Source: a virus
IMG/VR virus record: IMGVR_UViG_3300012984_000012
Span: 32,001 to 96,000 of that record
DNA: 64,000 nt
Reading direction: 5' to 3' (one strand)
Positions within the stretch are counted from its first letter, which is position 1, and every line of letters begins with the position of its first letter. The notes below the pieces were generated by a model. It was given only the letters and a program-made list of their open reading frames with translations, did no database searches and was not told where the DNA came from. Of this stretch, positions 25,059-63,650 are shown in pieces. The translations under genes and the position numbers were made by a program.

Positions 25059-28000
25059 TCAGACCTGGTCCTCTCCGTACGTTTCGATTGTCACGAAATA
25101 CTTTTCAAACGTAAGATCGCCTTGGTTCTTATCACGATCTCGAAAGCGAAACGCAGCATGGTTTGGCGCAGCCCGACCTTGGACGAACGGACGACCAGAC
25201 GGATAGTTGTTCAGGTTGAGCATGGCAAAGCGAACCATGTTACGAGACGTGTAATTCTCTGTCGCTGGGATGATGTCACCCTTGAGGATCATTTGCTTGA
25301 GCGCCGCGGTTCCCTGTGGGGTTTGAACCGTCTTATCGTAATCAATCTCAAACTCATCTGGATCGACGATAACGTTAAAGACACGATCGAACGTTTTGGG
25401 CGACACTATTCTCTTAGAGACAGCAACGGGATCTGCTAGAGGCGTTACCATGTGTGTTAGATTGCTTATCGTTCTCAATCCATGTAACATCACCGGAATG
25501 TTACGATGTGACACTGACGATAGGTTAGACTCTAGCGTGCCGATCGACTGCTGTGCAGCGAGCGTCTTGACGATGGGTTGGGCTTGGATCTTGCTAAACT
25601 GAGTGCTTGGTCCTATTGAACCTGCGATGCCCGAAGCGTTGCTTAGCTGAGGATACGTCGATGCTTTCGGTGATGTCGTCTTAGAAGGCGTGTAACCAAC
25701 CTTTCGAGGCGACGTAGTGCTAAATAAGACCCCTCCCGTGGGAGCGTGAGTCTCTGGGCTCGAGACGTTTTGGACGGTGAAGAGATTGGTCGTATACGCA
25801 ACGTAGTGTTCCGTCAACGTCTTTGTGAAATCAATGTCCATGGGCTTGTCTTGCTCGACCAGATCAAAGTGGTGATCACCGAGATCGATCCCGGTCGTGA
25901 GCTTGGCATAAACCTCTAACATGTAGCTCATCACGTGATTGTTGATGATCTCGTTTTTTTCCTGTTGGGTCAAGAAGTCATACGTCTCATCTGCAAACGC
26001 TGCCTTACGTCCATTGTTGATGTCGTCAGTATTGAGTGACCAGTAGGTGATCTCAGTAGCCGTCGCTTGGCTCTGGCCAAAGTCTCTCGTCGGTATGGCG
26101 TGTGCGATGTCTGACATCGATGGCCTCTCGGGAATCTGCAAGAACCAATGGTCATTTCGAACTGGAAACCTTGACAGCTCGAACAACATCCTCTTTGGCT
26201 TGTATATGATGTCGCTGTTCTCCAGGTCGACCTTGTACACGACCACCGACACGATGTCACTTTGCTTATCAATGAAGGTTGACTTTTTCAGGTTGTTCAG
26301 GCTGACGCGTTGTTTCAAGCGGCGTGTAAAGCCCAACGGGATCCCAACAGTGATGATCTTCTTGTTGTAACCTTTCTTTGACGCAAAATCGTCTGTCCCA
26401 AACGTGCTGTAAACTGCGTTCCTCAGCCTTGGTGACACGACGGAATCATCAAGTATCTTCAGTTCGTCGTCAGCGTCAAAGTCTCCGTCGCCATCAACGT
26501 CACCGTTGTCTGGTAACGCATCACGTTGTGAGATCCGATCGTTCAAATCATGAACCGTCGAGGCCAACAACATGATTTGTTGCTCGCTCATCAACATCTT
26601 CACCAGGTCTGGGTTGTTGATGATTGTGACGAGTTCGTTCAGCTTTGAGATCGCTGGCGGACTTTTCAGGTAATTCGAGTAGTTCTTAAACGCGCCAGAC
26701 AGTTTCTGAAGCGTGTTCATCGCAGTGTAAATCAGCTTGTGATTTAACGCGACCTCTTTCTCCATGCGAGTGGTTAAGTCGCTAGCCGAAGCCTTGTGAT
26801 TGGTCGTCGTCTTCGTGATATTGAACGTCAAGACGCTACGAATGTAATTCGTCGACACCAGCTTTTGGTCGTTGTAACAAGAGACCATTTGGATGATCGT
26901 GTCAAAGACGGCCATCATGATCGAGGTGTCTAGGTCACCGCTGAAGCGTGTTCGACCGTCGACCATCGCGCTATCGTTGGTCCTGAACGACGAAAGGATC
27001 TGTTGCATCAAGCCCTCAACGAATTTCGTCAACACTGTGCCTTGCTTGAACGACGCTGTCATGACGTCTGATGACATGGTAGACGACAGCTTGCCTGGCG
27101 CACTAAGCCTCGGAGGTTGAGGTTTGTTGGTCACGAGCATCTGTGGGATCGATTTTTCGATCTCAGAAACGATGTCCTTTATCAACGCATCAGTCAAGGG
27201 AGTGTTATCGCTTGACAGCGAATTCAAGTTGAAAAACGGGAGGCTGATGATCGGAAAGTACGATCGAGTGATCTTTGCGATCGTGTATATGAACAATGCT
27301 GACTTAACGTGGGGGTTGGTCGCAGCGAAGTTATACACAGAACCTAGGTTGTCATTCAGGACTGCGGGTAACGTGTTTCCCGTCTTAGGATCCAACAAGT
27401 TCTTCATCGACGTTTGAATGAAATCTGACGGACTAGACAATATCGATGAGAACTGTGACTGTGTGCGGTCGTACGGGTCGTACGTTCTGACGCCCAACAG
27501 GTTCATTCCATTGACAACGATGCTAAAAGAGTTGAAAGCCTTCTCAAACAGGTCACCACCTTCGTCAAGGTTAGCTGTGTTAAATCCTATCGCATTCGCT
27601 CCGTCAAGGACGCTATCAACGTAATACGTTCCCCCTGGCGTCAGCGTACCCGTGTCGCCGTCAACGTACTTTGATTCGAACGTCAGCACAGCGGCGCCAG
27701 ACGTCGTCTGGCGCTGGGCGATGTTTGCGAGAGAGTTGGTCTGTGTCGCAGGAAAATCGCTGATGTTGTTTCCGAACTTTCCAACGATCGATTCAAACAC
27801 ACCGACATTGTCTGAGGGAGAAACCTGGTAATTGAACCCACTGGACAACGCGTCCTGAACGTCACGCTGTGACATGCCGTGAGAATAACGAAATTCTTTC
27901 GAGATCAGGTTGGTCAGCGCCGCGATTTGGGCTTCCTGGCTCTTGAAGTGTACGTTCTGGTACAAGACGCTGTATGCTTGTGATATCGTGCTGACGGCTT

Positions 28001-59430: not shown

Positions 59431-59807
59431 TGAAACACCTGACTTGTTTCGTCGCTGGGCCATACTCGTCCAAGTACGGTTGGCCGGGCAGGGTCTATAA
59501 TGTCGCCAAGATGCTGGTGTTCGTCCGTCGCATCCTGAAGATGGGAATCATGCCAATCGGTCCGAACGCCATGTACTTTTGGTTCTCAAAGTGCCAGCCT
59601 TACGAGTTCTGGCTGCCAGGGACCCGAAGCATCCAAGAGAAGTGTGACGTCATCTTTTTCATCCCGGGTTGGAAGGTCTCTGGCGGCGCTCGTCAGGAAT
59701 ATGAGCACGCAGAATCAATCAGCCAACCCATCTTCACATCGCTACTGTCGCTAAAGGTCTTCAGTGAGAGGACCTCATCACAAAACACGGAGAGTGTGTC
59801 ATCATGA
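59430..59807 (+). CDS. DUF1937/DUF4406-like (nucleoside deoxyribosyltransferase-like fold) protein
   Basis: FVAGPYS, CDVIFFIPGWKVSGGARQE. Confidence 0.65.
   Translation: MKHLTCFVAGPYSSKYGWPGRVYNVAKMLVFVRRILKMGIMPIGPNAMYFWFSKCQPYEFWLPGTRSIQEKCDVIFFIPGWKVSGGARQEYEHAESISQPIFTSLLSLKVFSERTSSQNTESVSS
59755..59797 (+). promoter_or_regulatory. Twin-hairpin RNA element over the RBS of NAMPT
   Basis: AGGTCTTC-AGTGA-GAGGACCT followed by ACAC-GGAGA-GTGT. Confidence 0.6.
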
Positions 59808-61243
59808 AATACGCAAGAAAAAAGGACCTGGTCCTCAACAACATCAACGATACCGACAGCTATAAGTTCAGTCACTACCTTCTGTACCCAGACGACATGG
59901 AGTACATGGAGAGTTACTTCGAATCCCGAGGCGGCGAGTTCGATGAGTGCACCCTGTTTGGGATGCAGTACATCTGTCACAAGTACCTCTCGAAGAAGAT
60001 CACGTTGGAGGACATCAGCGAGATCGAGCGCGATGCGCTAGCACATGGCGAACCTTTCAATCTCGCGGGATGGCTTCACATTCTGGACAAGTACGACGGT
60101 AACCTGCCTGTGACGATCCGAGGCATCCCTGAAGGCATGATCGTGCCGGTCAAGAACGCCATCCTCGTCGTCAGAAGTCCCAGGGATAAGAGGTGTGCTT
60201 GGATCACCAATTGGATCGAGACGCTGCTGACGCGTGTTTGGTACCCGTCTGTCGTCGCCATCGGTAGCCGCGAGGTCAAGAAAGTCTGGCTGCACTACCT
60301 CCAGCTGTCCAGTGACGACCCAGCCGCAGAAATCTCTTTTAAGCACCACGATTTTGGCGGTCGTGGTGTCACGTGTCAAGAACAGGCGATGCTCGGCGGG
60401 GGAGCCCACTTGATGAGCTTCTTGGGCAGCGACACCATGGCAGGCATCAAGTGGGTGAATCACTACTACGATTGCTTGATGTCAGGATTCTCGATCCCAG
60501 CGACCGAACACTCCACGATGACGATCCGCGGCGAGGAAAACGAAGAGGAGACTGTCGTCACCTGGGTCACCAAGACGCTCGTCGAGCGCCAGGTCCCAAC
60601 CGGGATGCCCAAGCTTTCTGCTTGCGTGGGCGACAGCTGGAACATGTTCAGGTTCACGAGGATGGTCTGCCAACCTCGCATCCGAGAGCTCGTCAAAGGT
60701 TCTGGTGGCACTCTCATCGTCCGCCCGGACAGCGGTGACCCGGTCACCACGCTTCAAAAGATCTTCGACATCTTCGAAGAGTGCCTGCCTGAAGGTGAGA
60801 TCACCGTCAATCGCAAGGGTTACAAGGTTTTACCAGATTACTTCAGGATCATCTGGGGCGATGGCATCAACCGTCGTTCGATGAAGAAGATCCTACAAAC
60901 AGTCGTTGACTATGGTTGGAGCGTGTCGAACATCGCTCTAGGTTCGGGTGGAGGCCTGCTCATGGATTTCAATCGTGACACCCAGAAGCATGCCTTCAAG
61001 TGTTGCGCAGCCTGGGTCGGCGGGCGGTTGGTGCGGGTCTCGAAGAACCCAATCACCGATCCTGGCAAGAGGTCGAAAGAAGGTCGTCTAGACCTGATCA
61101 GGACTGAGAATGGTTTTGAGACCGTCATCCTCGACGATGGCGTCGACGTGCACCCGAATAGCGTCTACGTCACGTACTTTGACATCGGCGATATCTGTTA
61201 CAACACTACGGCAGACGAAGTTCGTGCCCGTATGGCAATCTGA
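59804..61243 (+). CDS. nadV: Nicotinamide phosphoribosyltransferase
   Basis: DTDSYKFSH, HDFG.RG, SIPATEHS, RPDSGDP, GDGI, GSGGGLL. Confidence 0.93.
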   Translation: MKYARKKDLVLNNINDTDSYKFSHYLLYPDDMEYMESYFESRGGEFDECTLFGMQYICHKYLSKKITLEDISEIERDALAHGEPFNLAGWLHILDKYDGNLPVTIRGIPEGMIVPVKNAILVVRSPRDKRCAWITNWIETLLTRVWYPSVVAIGSREVKKVWLHYLQLSSDDPAAEISFKHHDFGGRGVTCQEQAMLGGGAHLMSFLGSDTMAGIKWVNHYYDCLMSGFSIPATEHSTMTIRGEENEEETVVTWVTKTLVERQVPTGMPKLSACVGDSWNMFRFTRMVCQPRIRELVKGSGGTLIVRPDSGDPVTTLQKIFDIFEECLPEGEITVNRKGYKVLPDYFRIIWGDGINRRSMKKILQTVVDYGWSVSNIALGSGGGLLMDFNRDTQKHAFKCCAAWVGGRLVRVSKNPITDPGKRSKEGRLDLIRTENGFETVILDDGVDVHPNSVYVTYFDIGDICYNTTADEVRARMAI

Positions 61244-61257
61244 AACGGACAAACAAA

Positions 61258-61764
61258 ATGATAGAATACCTCGTGGGTGACGCCACCCATCCCAACGGCC
61301 CAGACGTCAAGATCATCGCACACGTTGTCAATGACATCGGTCGTTGGGGACGAGGTTTCGTCCTGTCAGTGACCAAGCGATACCCGGTCGCTGAACACGC
61401 TTATCGTGAATGGAGCAAGGGAGAAGGAGAACACCCTTCTCCGTTTGCGCTAGGTGAGACACAACTCGTGCACGTGGGTGATGGCATTCACGTTGCCAAC
61501 ATGGTCGGACAGCACGATGTCATGACAGTGAATGGCGTGCCTCCCATCAGGTACGATGCTCTAGAAAGCTGCCTGACAAAGCTAAGGATCTTTGCCAAGC
61601 TGTTGGATGCCTCTGTTCACATGCCCAGGATAGGATGTGGCCTAGCAGGTGGAAAATGGTCAGAGGTGGAGGCGATCGTCAACCGTGTCCTTGCTCACGA
61701 CGTAAGAACAGTCGTGTACGACTTCGACACGAAGGACAACAGAACGGTGCCATGGAACAAGTAG
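61258..61764 (+). CDS. Macrodomain ADP-ribose hydrolase (Poa1/TARG1/DarG-like)
   Basis: GDAT, HVVND.G.WG.GF, MPRIGCGLAGG.W. Confidence 0.88.
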   Translation: MIEYLVGDATHPNGPDVKIIAHVVNDIGRWGRGFVLSVTKRYPVAEHAYREWSKGEGEHPSPFALGETQLVHVGDGIHVANMVGQHDVMTVNGVPPIRYDALESCLTKLRIFAKLLDASVHMPRIGCGLAGGKWSEVEAIVNRVLAHDVRTVVYDFDTKDNRTVPWNK

Positions 61765-61946
61765 GGCTCACGGTTGAGGACACCGTGAAACAACTGTTAC
61801 AACAACGGTGTGATTTCTCAAAGCAGTTTGCGGCTGGTAACCAGAACGTCCAGGTCGGCATCGAGTTCATCGATAACATCCTGGGACAGATGGTCCCAGG
61901 ATACGCGCCGCCCAAGGGCTGTGGGTGTGGTTGCGATGACAAGTGA
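61752..61946 (+). CDS. Small hypothetical protein with C-terminal GCGCGC
   Basis: Overlaps the macrodomain stop. Confidence 0.45.
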   Translation: MEQVGLTVEDTVKQLLQQRCDFSKQFAAGNQNVQVGIEFIDNILGQMVPGYAPPKGCGCGCDDK

Positions 61947-61956
61947 ATCTTGGGCC

Positions 61957-61985
61957 TGTACAACGGCACGAAGAAGGATTACTTA
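61957..61985 (+). promoter_or_regulatory. Promoter TGTACA-N17-TACTTA for the Pth/CoaE/tRNA operon
   Basis: Intergenic; 6 nt before ATG 61992. Confidence 0.5.
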
Positions 61986-62114
61986 CTAGACATGCTACGA
62001 GAGTTGTGAATGCAAGGCGGTTGAACCGCAGTGTCTTGCGCGAGGACCTCCTCGACTAACACGTTCCGATCAGTTCGCTGTACGTGTTTTGTTTTGAGAT
62101 GAAAGAGGTCTATT

Positions 62115-62507
62115 ATGCTCACTGGTATTCAAGTTCTTCGTGCTAAGGTTCGTGGCCTGCAAGCTGCAGGTATTTCCATTCACAATCGTATTCGTAAGGC
62201 AAAAGGTCCGAAGCGAAACAAGCTGTGGGATGACAAGCGTACGCTCGGCAGTTACAGTCGGGAACACCTGATTGCTTACGGGTTGATGCGTGGCGTCCCG
62301 TATGATAGGATCGAAAGATGCGCAAAGGGAAACCAACCAAACGCTCGAACACTGTTCGAGCTGATGAAGGCTCACGCCGATTGGAAAATGGCAAGGGAGC
62401 TCACCCTCGAAAAGGTCGAGGCGCTGCTGACGCCGTCAACCGAGCCAGTTCCTCGGTCAAACAGGCTCATGCGAAGGGCTCAAAAGGCCCTCGAAAAAAG
62501 CGCGTGA
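62115..62507 (+). CDS. Basic phage hypothetical protein
   Basis: GAGG RBS; REHLIAYGLMRGVPYDRIE. Confidence 0.65.
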   Translation: MLTGIQVLRAKVRGLQAAGISIHNRIRKAKGPKRNKLWDDKRTLGSYSREHLIAYGLMRGVPYDRIERCAKGNQPNARTLFELMKAHADWKMARELTLEKVEALLTPSTEPVPRSNRLMRRAQKALEKSA

Positions 62508-62515
62508 GGCAAGCC

Positions 62516-62857
62516 ATGGCCACCATTAAGATGGGCGACAAGCTCTTTCTAGTGACACGTCGTGACATCGCGCCTGGTTATCAGGCCGTCCAGTCGTGTC
62601 ACGCCATGAGGCAGTTCACCGCTGATCATCCTGAGGTCGATAACGACTGGTTCGCGAAATCAAATTACCTAGCGCTGTTGTCAGTCGACAACGAGATCGA
62701 GCTGATGAGGCTCCTCGTTGCCGCTACCGATGCTGGGTTAAGGTCATCTGCGTTTCGCGAACCAGACGTCGGTGGAGCCATCACCGCTATCGCCATCGAG
62801 CCACACCCAAAAGCAGCAGAGTTGTGTAAATCGTTACCCCTGGCCCTTAAGGTCTGA
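62516..62857 (+). CDS. Peptidyl-tRNA hydrolase PTH2-like protein
   Basis: KLFLVTRRDI..G...VQSCHA, FREPD....TAIA. Confidence 0.7.
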   Translation: MATIKMGDKLFLVTRRDIAPGYQAVQSCHAMRQFTADHPEVDNDWFAKSNYLALLSVDNEIELMRLLVAATDAGLRSSAFREPDVGGAITAIAIEPHPKAAELCKSLPLALKV

Positions 62858-62872
62858 TCAGGTAACGAGAAA

Positions 62873-63508
62873 ATGATGACCGAGCTCGATCGCACTTCGT
62901 TGAAGGTTTTTGGCCTGACTGGTGGGATTGCTAGCGGCAAGAGCACCGTCAGTCGGCTCTGGGCAAAGTGGGGAGTTCCCATCGTTGACGCTGACCTGGT
63001 GTCACGCCAGGTGATGGTCCCGGGAGCTCCCGCCTTCAATGCTATCATCGAGTGTTTTGGGCTCGAGATAGTGACACCCACGGGTGAGATCGACAGGAAG
63101 GCTTTGGGAAGCATCGTTTTTAGCGACAGCAAGAAACGAGCGTTGCTCAACTCAATAGTACACCCGAGGATCGCAAGCCAGACTCGAGCCATGTTCTCAG
63201 AGCTTCGTAGCAGCGGTGAAAAGCTAGCGTGTTATGACGCCCCGCTGTTGATCGAAGGCGGATTTGCAGCCGCTTTCAGGCCACTCGTCGTCGTCACGGT
63301 CCCGCCTGACGTTCAATTAAACAGGGTCATGGCCCGAGATGACCTGACTGAACAAGAGGCAAGATCTCGGATCTCGGCTCAGATGTCGCAGGACGCAAAG
63401 GTCGAGAAGGCTGACATCGTGATCAACAACGATGACGACCTATCAATGTTGATGTTTCGTGCTCGTCAGGCTCTTGACAGGGTGATGCAGATGGTTTCGG
63501 TCCCGTAG
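62873..63508 (+). CDS. coaE: Dephospho-CoA kinase
   Basis: GLTGGIASGKST, DAD, HPRI, DAPLL, RISAQ. Confidence 0.93.
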   Translation: MMTELDRTSLKVFGLTGGIASGKSTVSRLWAKWGVPIVDADLVSRQVMVPGAPAFNAIIECFGLEIVTPTGEIDRKALGSIVFSDSKKRALLNSIVHPRIASQTRAMFSELRSSGEKLACYDAPLLIEGGFAAAFRPLVVVTVPPDVQLNRVMARDDLTEQEARSRISAQMSQDAKVEKADIVINNDDDLSMLMFRARQALDRVMQMVSVP

Positions 63509-63571
63509 CTCAGCGGTAGAGCATTCGGATTTCAACCCGATTTGTCGTGGGTTCGACCCCCACCGGGATCA
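63499..63571 (+). tRNA. tRNA-like gene with atypical 8-nt anticodon loop (TTC / TTCA / TCA)
   Basis: Acceptor GGTCCCG/CGGGATC, D-arm GCTC/GAGC, T-arm GTGGG-TTCGACC-CCCAC; overlaps the coaE stop; CCA not encoded. Confidence 0.85.
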
Positions 63572-63574
63572 CAC

Positions 63575-63646
63575 GCTCTCATAGCCTAGAGGTCAGGCAA
63601 TCGGATTTCAACCCGAGTGACACAGGTTCGAACCCTGTTGAGAGCG
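63575..63646 (+). tRNA. tRNA-Glu-like gene with the same 8-nt anticodon loop
   Basis: Acceptor GCTCTCA/TGAGAGC, G73, D-arm GCCT-AGAGGTC-AGGC, 4-nt variable loop, T-arm ACAGG-TTCGAAC-CCTGT. Confidence 0.85.
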
Positions 63647-63650
63647 CAAG

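Follow-up and report, generated by a model that had tools for sequence, protein, structure and literature searches.

The stretch of virus DNA analysed here, 64,000 nucleotides (nt) long and referred to as the window, comprises bases 32001–96000 of the linear record IMGVR_UViG_3300012984_000012 (129,880 bp, 52.7% G+C) and contains, directly upstream of genes for a small helical protein (p130) and a Pth2-fold protein, a leader that is likely to be an attenuator based on an arrest peptide and gated by a suppressor or frameshifting tRNA of the same operon. Comparison of related loci shows that the layout is conserved, that the leader corresponds to the tRNA, that its peptide is under selection and that a helix covaries. 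In the mechanism that we propose, a promoter a few bases 5' of the ATG would give rise to an mRNA beginning with a mini-open reading frame (ORF) encoding MLREL, at whose UGA most ribosomes would terminate. A phage tRNA carrying UUCA in an 8-nt anticodon loop would read UGA-A as a unit, shifting the ribosome to the +1 frame, in which it would translate about ten codons, pass a small hairpin and arrest at Arg-Gly-Pro-Pro (RGPP). The arrested ribosome would cover GGACCUCC and the next bases, otherwise paired with the Shine–Dalgarno region of p130, and the freed Shine–Dalgarno would allow translation of p130 and of the closely following Pth2-like gene, so that operon output would follow the ratio of suppressor-tRNA to release-factor activity. 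Within this reading, activation of p130 and Pth2 by Shine–Dalgarno release is somewhat favoured.

A preliminary description of the locus had listed a promoter-like site, an upstream ORF (uORF) starting at ATG 61992, the TGAA at its end, and a +1 frame encoding RGPP that lacks a start codon of its own, all of which were confirmed upon reading the window. The RGPP frame is open only from position 61990, contains no ATG, GTG or TTG before RGPP, and reads C-K-A-V-E-P-Q-C-L-A-R-G-P-P; a four-base reading of UGA-A puts the ribosome into it. The frame had also been said to run over the start of p130, which is incorrect for the window, where it closes shortly before the gene (Table 1); it does enter the p130 gene in three of the 18 relatives found first (L035, L039, L040). 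No Shine–Dalgarno precedes the uORF ATG, which makes a leaderless or almost leaderless mRNA probable. Of 55 unique classified leaders, 30 show the pattern TGTAC[AG]-N15-20-TAnnn[TAC]-N2-10-ATG(uORF), as against none of 55 control ATGs inside genes. The TGTACA site is absent from the output of a generic sigma-70 scan, and no intrinsic terminator was listed by a scan of 61947–62114. Between the putative recoding site and RGPP the window is predicted to form a hairpin (RNAfold −11.4 kcal/mol, z −1.9) that may stimulate recoding; some small structure is predicted at this position in 32 of 34 +1-type leaders, with a mean z of only −1.2, and its stem sequences vary among relatives (GCGGT/ACCGC, GCGCC/GGCGC, GTGC/GCAC). 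The hairpin loop holds a second TGAA in the same frame (62022–62025), which follows a mini-ORF ATG-CAA-GGC-GGT starting at TGA-ATG; it is seen in several relatives, is not conserved as TGAA, and possibly offers a second chance for a +1 event.

A search with the Pth2-like protein as query returned the 18 first IMG/VR loci, and an alignment of these returned 63 IMG/VR and 78 metagenome loci, amounting to 141 Pth2-like loci, many of them duplicates in which the same contigs were filed twice. The gene order NAMPT–p168–p130–Pth2, accompanied by one or two odd tRNAs 20–1650 nt downstream, is common to all 18 first relatives, as is an RGPP located 63–76 nt 5' of the p130 ATG, and in 17 of them the RGPP frame has no start codon, the motif being reached only via the uORF stop. 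On the wider scale, R[AG]PP is found upstream of the Pth2-like gene in 83 of 123 related loci with at least 600 nt of upstream sequence. Chance is excluded because the motif is rare in the record (eight occurrences in six frames) and yet occupies the same place in these 83 loci. None of the eight occurrences is in the frame of a called gene, in agreement with the reported exclusion of such motifs from proteomes (PMC12992588, represented here, like the other papers cited by number, by part of its text), and the same source describes RGPP and RAPP as robust arrest sequences refractory to EF-P. A RAPP directly following a TGA on the minus strand (window 59681–59695) lies opposite the NAMPT start and an overlapping plus-strand ORF, and was set aside as a chance occurrence.

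The 65 unique R[AG]PP contexts fall into distinct classes. In 36 of them an ATG-uORF ends in TGAA (never in TGAC, TGAG or TGAT) and RGPP follows 1–12 codons on in the +1 frame; this is the combination of uORF, TGAA and +1 RGPP whose conservation had been put forward as a check. An in-frame class comprises 16 TAG, three TAA and one TGA leader with RGPP or RAPP 1–6 codons on, two contexts are ambiguous, and seven are unclassified (three with RAPP elsewhere, four with a truncated or long uORF). Within the class of 8-nt UUCA loops, the contrary outcomes that were looked for, RGPP in frame with the ATG or loss of the motif, were not encountered. The possibility that a 1-nt assembly error or a frameshifted pseudogene underlies the +1 layout, for which no point speaks, has been refuted and retains a negligible probability: a contig from an independent DNA study (X4) shows 0 differences over 61900–62189, the 36 unique leaders share the layout, and a relative assembled from an RNA-library run (X6, about 90% identity over 27 of 30 bins, with DNA carry-over possible and transcription not claimed) has a 12-nt deletion at 62026, between TGAA and RGPP, that keeps the frame.

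The MLREL peptide is homologous to the C-terminal end of the longer uORF peptides of relatives (..YPQMILREL / ILREF / ILREH / MREL), a family represented among TGAA and TAG leaders alike. Specifically, ..YPQMILRE-x is combined with TGAA in L047, L056 and L065 and with TAG in L048, L118 and L134, and the switch therefore happened inside one leader family. Among the 58 classified unique leaders, 55 encode RGPP and three RAPP. Arg is specified by CGT (30 leaders), CGA (13), AGG (6), CGC (6), CGG (2) or AGA (1), Gly by GGA, GGT, GGC or GGG, the Ala replacing Gly in three leaders by GCG or GCA, and all four Pro codons are used; because the Arg, Gly and Pro codons vary synonymously, the codon record indicates selection at the level of the peptide. 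These data bear upon an alternative in which the element acts as RNA only, an anti-Shine–Dalgarno hairpin (GGACCUCC with GGAGGU) masking the p130 start until opened by temperature, a protein or a small RNA. RGPP would then be a side effect of CCUCC, and the uORF and the correspondence to the tRNA would be coincidental. Such an element would account for the near-invariance of GGACCTCC in close relatives, for its consensus helix with the Shine–Dalgarno showing no compensatory change, and for a first Pro codon (CCT in 49 of 58 leaders) whose uniformity exceeds what selection on the peptide alone would require. It would not account for an Arg that lies outside the helix core and is nonetheless kept via six synonymous codons, for the retention of RGPP in three leaders lacking CCUCC (L108, L152, L161, with CCCCCT or CCGCCT), for the substitution by RAPP in three leaders, or for a conserved uORF peptide whose frame relation to the motif and stop identity track the tRNA in 43 of 43 loci. 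We accordingly give the RNA-only explanation very little weight.

The gating tRNAs would be those encoded at the end of the operon, which had been recognized earlier as two UUCA-loop tRNAs and are supported by Rfam scores of 55.2 and 51.4 bits. Both anticodon loops carry one extra base, ATTTCAAC, which Infernal treats as a 1-nt insertion. In 48 unique N-Y-UUCA-A-N tRNAs the 8-nt register leaves 78% of stem cells paired, vs 35% and 56% for the two 7-nt registers, and because it pairs better the extra loop base is taken as real and conserved; the three loop-adjacent pairs are formed in 43–46 of the 48, with varying pair types. In the X6 relative the changes T63601C and A63616G in tRNA-2 are compensatory and keep the stem pair adjoining the 8-nt loop. 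An exact search of IMG/VR with the 16-nt anticodon arm gave 22 matches, none of them a tRNA, and these are regarded as chance.

In a hand-labelled set of 43 loci with both a leader and a suppressor-like tRNA (L064, L152 and near-duplicates left out), the leader stop is the complement of the tRNA anticodon core (UCA, CUA or UUA) in all 43, and in 41 of them the association of the +1 layout with 8-nt loops holds. Relatives with CUA, UUA or 7-nt-loop UCA tRNAs have TAG, TAA or TGA leaders, respectively, with the motif in frame. In L064/L039 the loop is GGUUAUGU (UUAU) and the leader has ATAA exactly at the position of the others' TGAA, while in L095 a U.U mismatch extends the UCA loop to nominally 9 nt (effectively 7 nt) and the leader reads MREL-TGA-I-Y-S-C-RGPP in frame. 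Conservation and the leader–tRNA match thus lend support to the core idea of the preliminary description, in which a uORF UGA-A would be read by the operon's tRNAs to reach an RGPP controlling the operon. Suppressor tRNAs at many T-class loci (e.g., L052:4471-4543, L070:5703-5779, L095:5556-5629) have nominal 9-nt 'loops' in which a mismatch (A.A, C.U, A.C or U.U) closes a 7-nt loop on a 4-bp anticodon stem, and a shortened anticodon stem reportedly promotes stop-codon reading in Blastocrithidia.

Two further explanations dispense with stop-codon reading by these tRNAs. In one, they are ordinary or decoy Glu-type tRNAs, serving GAA decoding or soaking up a host anticodon nuclease, with Pth2 acting in rescue after tRNA cleavage and the leader unrelated. 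ARAGORN calls tRNA-Glu(ttc) in 11 of the first 31 tRNAs, and tRNA-2 combines a 4-nt variable loop with G73, both of them Glu-like. For phage PTH2, a part in rescue following cleavage of the anticodon loop has also been proposed (PMC7824862). Against this, relatives have CUA, UUA or UCA anticodons on the same two bodies, neither 7-nt register gives a good fit, the leader stop tracks the anticodon, and type-B loops (ACUUCAAG) would put C, not U, before a UUC anticodon, leaving the Glu-type explanation very improbable. In the other, the leader is a release-factor sensor of the prfB type, as the preliminary description had suggested by analogy, in which host machinery performs the +1 shift at UGA when release factor 2 (RF2) is scarce and the tRNAs serve another purpose. 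Any read-through or shift at the stop competes with a release factor, so that the leader necessarily reports a tRNA-to-release-factor ratio, and in every leader class the stop is often followed by A as fourth base. The analogy breaks down in the details, however: in place of the slippery CUU-UGA-C and an upstream Shine–Dalgarno-like stimulator, the leaders have TTG, CTC, TTC, GCC or GGC as last sense codon, none of which allows re-pairing in +1, no stimulator, and A as fourth base. Moreover, TAG and TAA leaders with CUA and UUA tRNAs and in-frame motifs are not predicted by an RF2-specific mechanism, and we consider a sensor of this type quite unlikely.

Returning to the tRNA-gated attenuator, its output step would depend on the structure of the downstream half of the leader. 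The only consensus helix identified by RNAalifold pairs GGACCUC (the Gly-Pro codons) with the p130 Shine–Dalgarno, and the same outer helix, surrounding an inner hairpin, appears in the minimum-free-energy folds of nearly all 34 leaders, the window included. When the 16 nt after RGPP were paired with the 22 nt before the Shine–Dalgarno, leaving out the conserved core, cognate flanks gave a mean duplex energy of −9.1 kcal/mol vs −5.0 for non-cognate ones (60 leaders, permutation p ~2e-4), and because cognate flanks pair better the helix is maintained by covariation. Over the same number of leaders, the predicted probability that the Shine–Dalgarno is unpaired rises from 0.32 in the free leader to 0.51 when the footprint of the stalled ribosome is opened; shuffling of the 5' part gives 0.45.

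Several observations weigh against the attenuator as described. Its whole support is comparative and computational, with charging of the tRNAs, their shifting of the frame, arrest at RGPP, and an activating rather than repressing effect of this arrest being what we infer. An 8-nt loop alone is no proof of +1 decoding, because L108 (2584-2657) and L130 (3043-3120) have 8-nt loops, ACUCUAAG and CGUUUAAU, yet in-frame TAG-C and TAA-A leaders, respectively, and because an 8-nt loop can be read in triplets, as in yeast mitochondrial tRNA-Thr1 (PMC3113583). The L108 leader is identical over 220 nt to that of L118, whose tRNAs have 7-nt and 9-nt loops. In L108 the extra base is placed by Infernal at the 5' side of the loop, which is reportedly also its position in SufJ. 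The leader of L152 is of the TAG type, yet the sole tRNA detected within 2.4 kb is a tRNA-His. Resolution of the Pth2 tree is low (three of 40 inner branches well supported), so that the number of independent leader–tRNA pairs ranges from one on supported branches to nine on the best tree, and no significance is claimed; the minimum of 11 changes per trait on the best tree is a description and not a test. R[AG]PP is absent from 40 of the 123 loci, all but one at ≤62% Pth2 identity. The core helix GGACCUC:GAGGU shows no compensatory changes, and in the window taken alone Shine–Dalgarno accessibility drops from 0.44 in the free to 0.25 in the stalled state. ARAGORN gives neither window tRNA a name. 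No second UGAA target was found in the 130-kb record (~38% of the genome), which leaves use of the tRNAs beyond the leader unexplained; within the record neither +1 continuation at TGAA nor read-through at TGA exceeds that of other stop contexts, and the +1 extensions behind its 12 TGAA stops are short (median 9.5 codons).

Table 1. Features of the leader, its operon and the neighbouring genes (positions are those of the window)
Feature	Position	Strand	Remarks
NAMPT	59804-61243	+	NAD salvage
p168, 168-residue protein	61258-61764	+	phrog_335 'phosphatase' match
64-residue ORF	61752-61946	+	
Intergenic leader, 168 nt	61947-62114	+	
Promoter-like site	TGTACA 61957-61962, 17-nt spacer, TACTTA 61980-61985	+	6 nt 5' of uORF ATG
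uORF, ATG CTA CGA GAG TTG (M-L-R-E-L)	61992-62006	+	followed by TGA 62007-62009 and A 62010
Putative recoding site UGA-A	62007-62010	+	complement of UUCA in both tRNA loops
Predicted hairpin between recoding site and RGPP	62012-62039	+	inner stem GCGGT 62017-62021 / ACCGC 62025-62029; outer stem GCAAG / CTTGC
RGPP, CGA GGA CCT CCT	62041-62052	+	+1 frame, 10 codons after UGA-A
Predicted anti-Shine–Dalgarno arm GGACCTC	62044-62050	+	overlaps RGPP codons
Predicted inner hairpin	ACACGT 62059-62064 / ACGTGT 62082-62087	+	part of putative attenuator 62053-62114
+1-frame stop TGA	62095-62097	+	18 nt before p130 ATG 62115
p130 Shine–Dalgarno GAGGT	62105-62109	+	
p130, 130 residues	62115-62507	+	predicted all-helical: long helical hairpin and small helical domain
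Pth2-fold protein, 113 residues	62516-62857	+	
CoaE, dephospho-CoA kinase	62873-63508	+	PF01121 E 8.4e-57
tRNA-1	63499-63572	+	A73; loop A-U-UUCA-A-C 63529-63536; 4-bp stem; no encoded CCA
tRNA-2	63575-63647	+	G73, 4-nt variable loop and a body unlike that of tRNA-1; 16-nt anticodon arm as in tRNA-1; loop 63605-63612
97-residue ORF	3' of tRNA-2	+	

The proteins of the operon are characterized to differing degrees. p130, encoded directly 5' of the Pth2-like gene in every case and matched by tblastn in all 18 first relatives, has no Pfam or PHROG match; for its AlphaFold2 model (predicted local distance difference test score, pLDDT, 93) Foldseek returned nothing at E ≤ 0.001, VIA-align generic helical hairpins only (Z up to 7.4), and the ESM Atlas no usable match. 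The Pth2-like protein, described at the outset as a Pth2-like hydrolase, is placed in this family by Pfam (PF01981, E 6.7e-7, 30 bits vs a cut-off of 23), phrog_1866 (E 1.5e-16) and a PDB profile (E 1.9e-5), and its model (pLDDT 90) supports the call, with Foldseek matching it to archaeal Pth2 and human Bit1 at E 3e-8 and a template-modelling (TM) score of ~0.75 (matches 2zv3, 1wn2, 1q7s, 3erj and 1xty, E 3e-8 to 3e-6). In the alignment to the archaeal Pth2 profile the canonical GKGK and DAGxT stretches are altered ('sKGKlaAQ' to 'apgyqavQ' and 'rDAGlT' to 'rEPDvg'). A complex prediction for p130 and Pth2 scored 0.01 against a mark of 0.32, which speaks neither for nor against binding. The CoaE gene, whose stop codon lies inside tRNA-1, is present in only seven of 142 loci and is a variable passenger of the module. 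In the relatives NAMPT and p168 always lie 5' of the module, and NAMPT itself ends in TGAA.

PTH2 has been noted before in jumbo phages and a role in ribosome rescue proposed, with no link to suppressor tRNAs made in the part of that source covered here (PMC7824862). Pth2-like genes also occur in cultured cluster C mycobacteriophages at 43–47% identity, and Mycobacterium phages account for 206 of the 228 matching phage records. Myrna (L182:2440-3040) and Catera (L183:2430-3180) have a CUA tRNA 130–250 nt 3' of the Pth2-like gene, annotated tRNA-Ser or tRNA-Arg in the records, and in neither of the two was a p130 homologue or an RGPP leader found. Their GTG start directly follows NTG-TAG, behind a promoter-like site TTGACA-17-TAC(A/C)GT, and the sequence NTG-TAG-GTG could be a start-stop mini-ORF or contain an in-frame amber as codon 2. 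Distant Pth2-like loci on contigs of 64–481 kb (L066, L069, L071-L075, ~61% identity) have CUA tRNAs downstream and four to five tRNA-Thr genes upstream; no R[AG]PP was found within 1.3 kb, and they may have another leader or none.

The record derives from a soil phage and, with a CheckV completeness of ~38%, is a fragment of a jumbo phage. Its 120 ORFs under code 11 occupy 94% of the sequence and end in TGA (71), TAG (28) or TAA (21), 12 of them in TGAA. A transfer-messenger RNA (tmRNA) gene with the tag ANDNGTAPLALVA lies on the minus strand of the record (25321–25688), 6.3 kb before the window start, and provides the phage with a second ribosome-rescue part besides Pth2. Six more tRNAs are found at 126–130 kb of the record, outside the window (Ile-UAU, two Gly and three Ser). 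No RF-1, GluRS/GlnRS or TrpRS/TyrRS domains were detected in the 130-kb record, which, being a fragment, does not imply their absence from the phage. Single-protein searches of IMG/VR with p130 and with CoaE returned no relatives, and a literature search of the main texts of PubMed Central papers under Creative Commons licences and of bioRxiv gave no description of this system.

The bolder form of the attenuator hypothesis, that of a natural dedicated four-base codon, is one to which we give slightly less than even odds: extra-base tRNAs of jumbo phages would decode UGA-A as one codon, the leader would monitor this activity, and p130 and the divergent Pth2 would be induced, together forming a phage-owned system with the tRNA. 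If so, the phage would handle termination and peptidyl-tRNA without host release factors, or perturb host termination under tight self-control. For the attenuator in its general form, the feedback and translation-rescue roles put forward in the preliminary description may apply, and our guess is that p130 and Pth2 limit or clean up after the suppressor tRNA, e.g., by hydrolysing its peptidyl or aminoacyl form. To our knowledge, examples of four-base decoding outside the laboratory come mainly from mutant suppressors and engineered tRNAs, so that dozens of wild phages combining an 8-nt-loop tRNA with a matched UGAA, whose only productive reading would be +1, offer a natural test case for quadruplet decoding. 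Many phages appear to have the same module in a triplet version, matched to UAG, UAA or UGA. Arrest-peptide regulation would gain a new input, stop-codon suppression by a tRNA of the same operon, and phage Pth2 genes, until now only guessed to encode ribosome-rescue factors, would be tied to suppressor tRNAs. The reason for which standard-code phages carry regulated suppressor tRNAs becomes testable. With a leader of ~160 nt and just two tRNAs, the system is compact enough to be moved directly into reporters, and its components might find use as natural orthogonal parts in work on the genetic code.

The proposed attenuator shares features with several known systems and coincides with none of them. 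In the classical attenuation leaders trpL, pheL and ermCL, too, leader translation reports the state of tRNA or ribosome and remodels the downstream RNA; here, however, the stall would result from the presence of an active tRNA, not its absence, and would be set by an arrest motif. The prfB gene for RF2, with its programmed +1 shift at an in-frame UGA, is the textbook case of a +1 event serving as regulatory read-out of termination efficiency. Besides lacking the slippery CUU-U, the internal Shine–Dalgarno and the fourth base C of prfB, the present leader would yield an arrest peptide rather than the regulated protein, and would need a dedicated tRNA. Phage-encoded tRNAs with stop-codon anticodons recall the suppressor tRNAs of stop-codon-recoded phages, crAss-like phages among them, reportedly described by Ivanova in 2014 and Borges in 2022, but the present record is 94% coding in the standard code, has TGA as its commonest stop and shows no genome-wide recoding over its 130 kb, the leader being the only conserved target found. 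The extra loop base and the four-base complementarity of UUCA to UGAA are shared with laboratory +1 suppressor tRNAs (SufJ, SufA6, SufB2) and engineered quadruplet tRNAs (PMC4238358, PMC7803779, PMC9094753, PMC4764823), from which the phage tRNAs differ in being natural, in occurring in dozens of phages on two tRNA bodies, and in being aimed at a stop plus A with a conserved target, their decoding being predicted. A further likeness is to the RAPP/RGPP arrest leaders (ApdA, ApdP and ApcA, SecM with RAGP, and Streptomyces peptides), in which a short leader with R-(A/G)-P-P lies upstream of a regulated gene (PMC12992588, PMC10987492, PMC10951233, PMC7897499) and a helix hides the downstream ribosome-binding site with its 5' arm under the arrested ribosome, as predicted here. 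Unlike those, the phage motif lies outside the frame, or beyond the stop, of every ORF that has a start codon, and would be reached only after a tRNA of the same operon decodes the stop, so that the input would be suppressor-tRNA activity in place of secretion or membrane insertion; the leader is also phage-borne, and the genes that it precedes encode p130 and a Pth2-fold protein.

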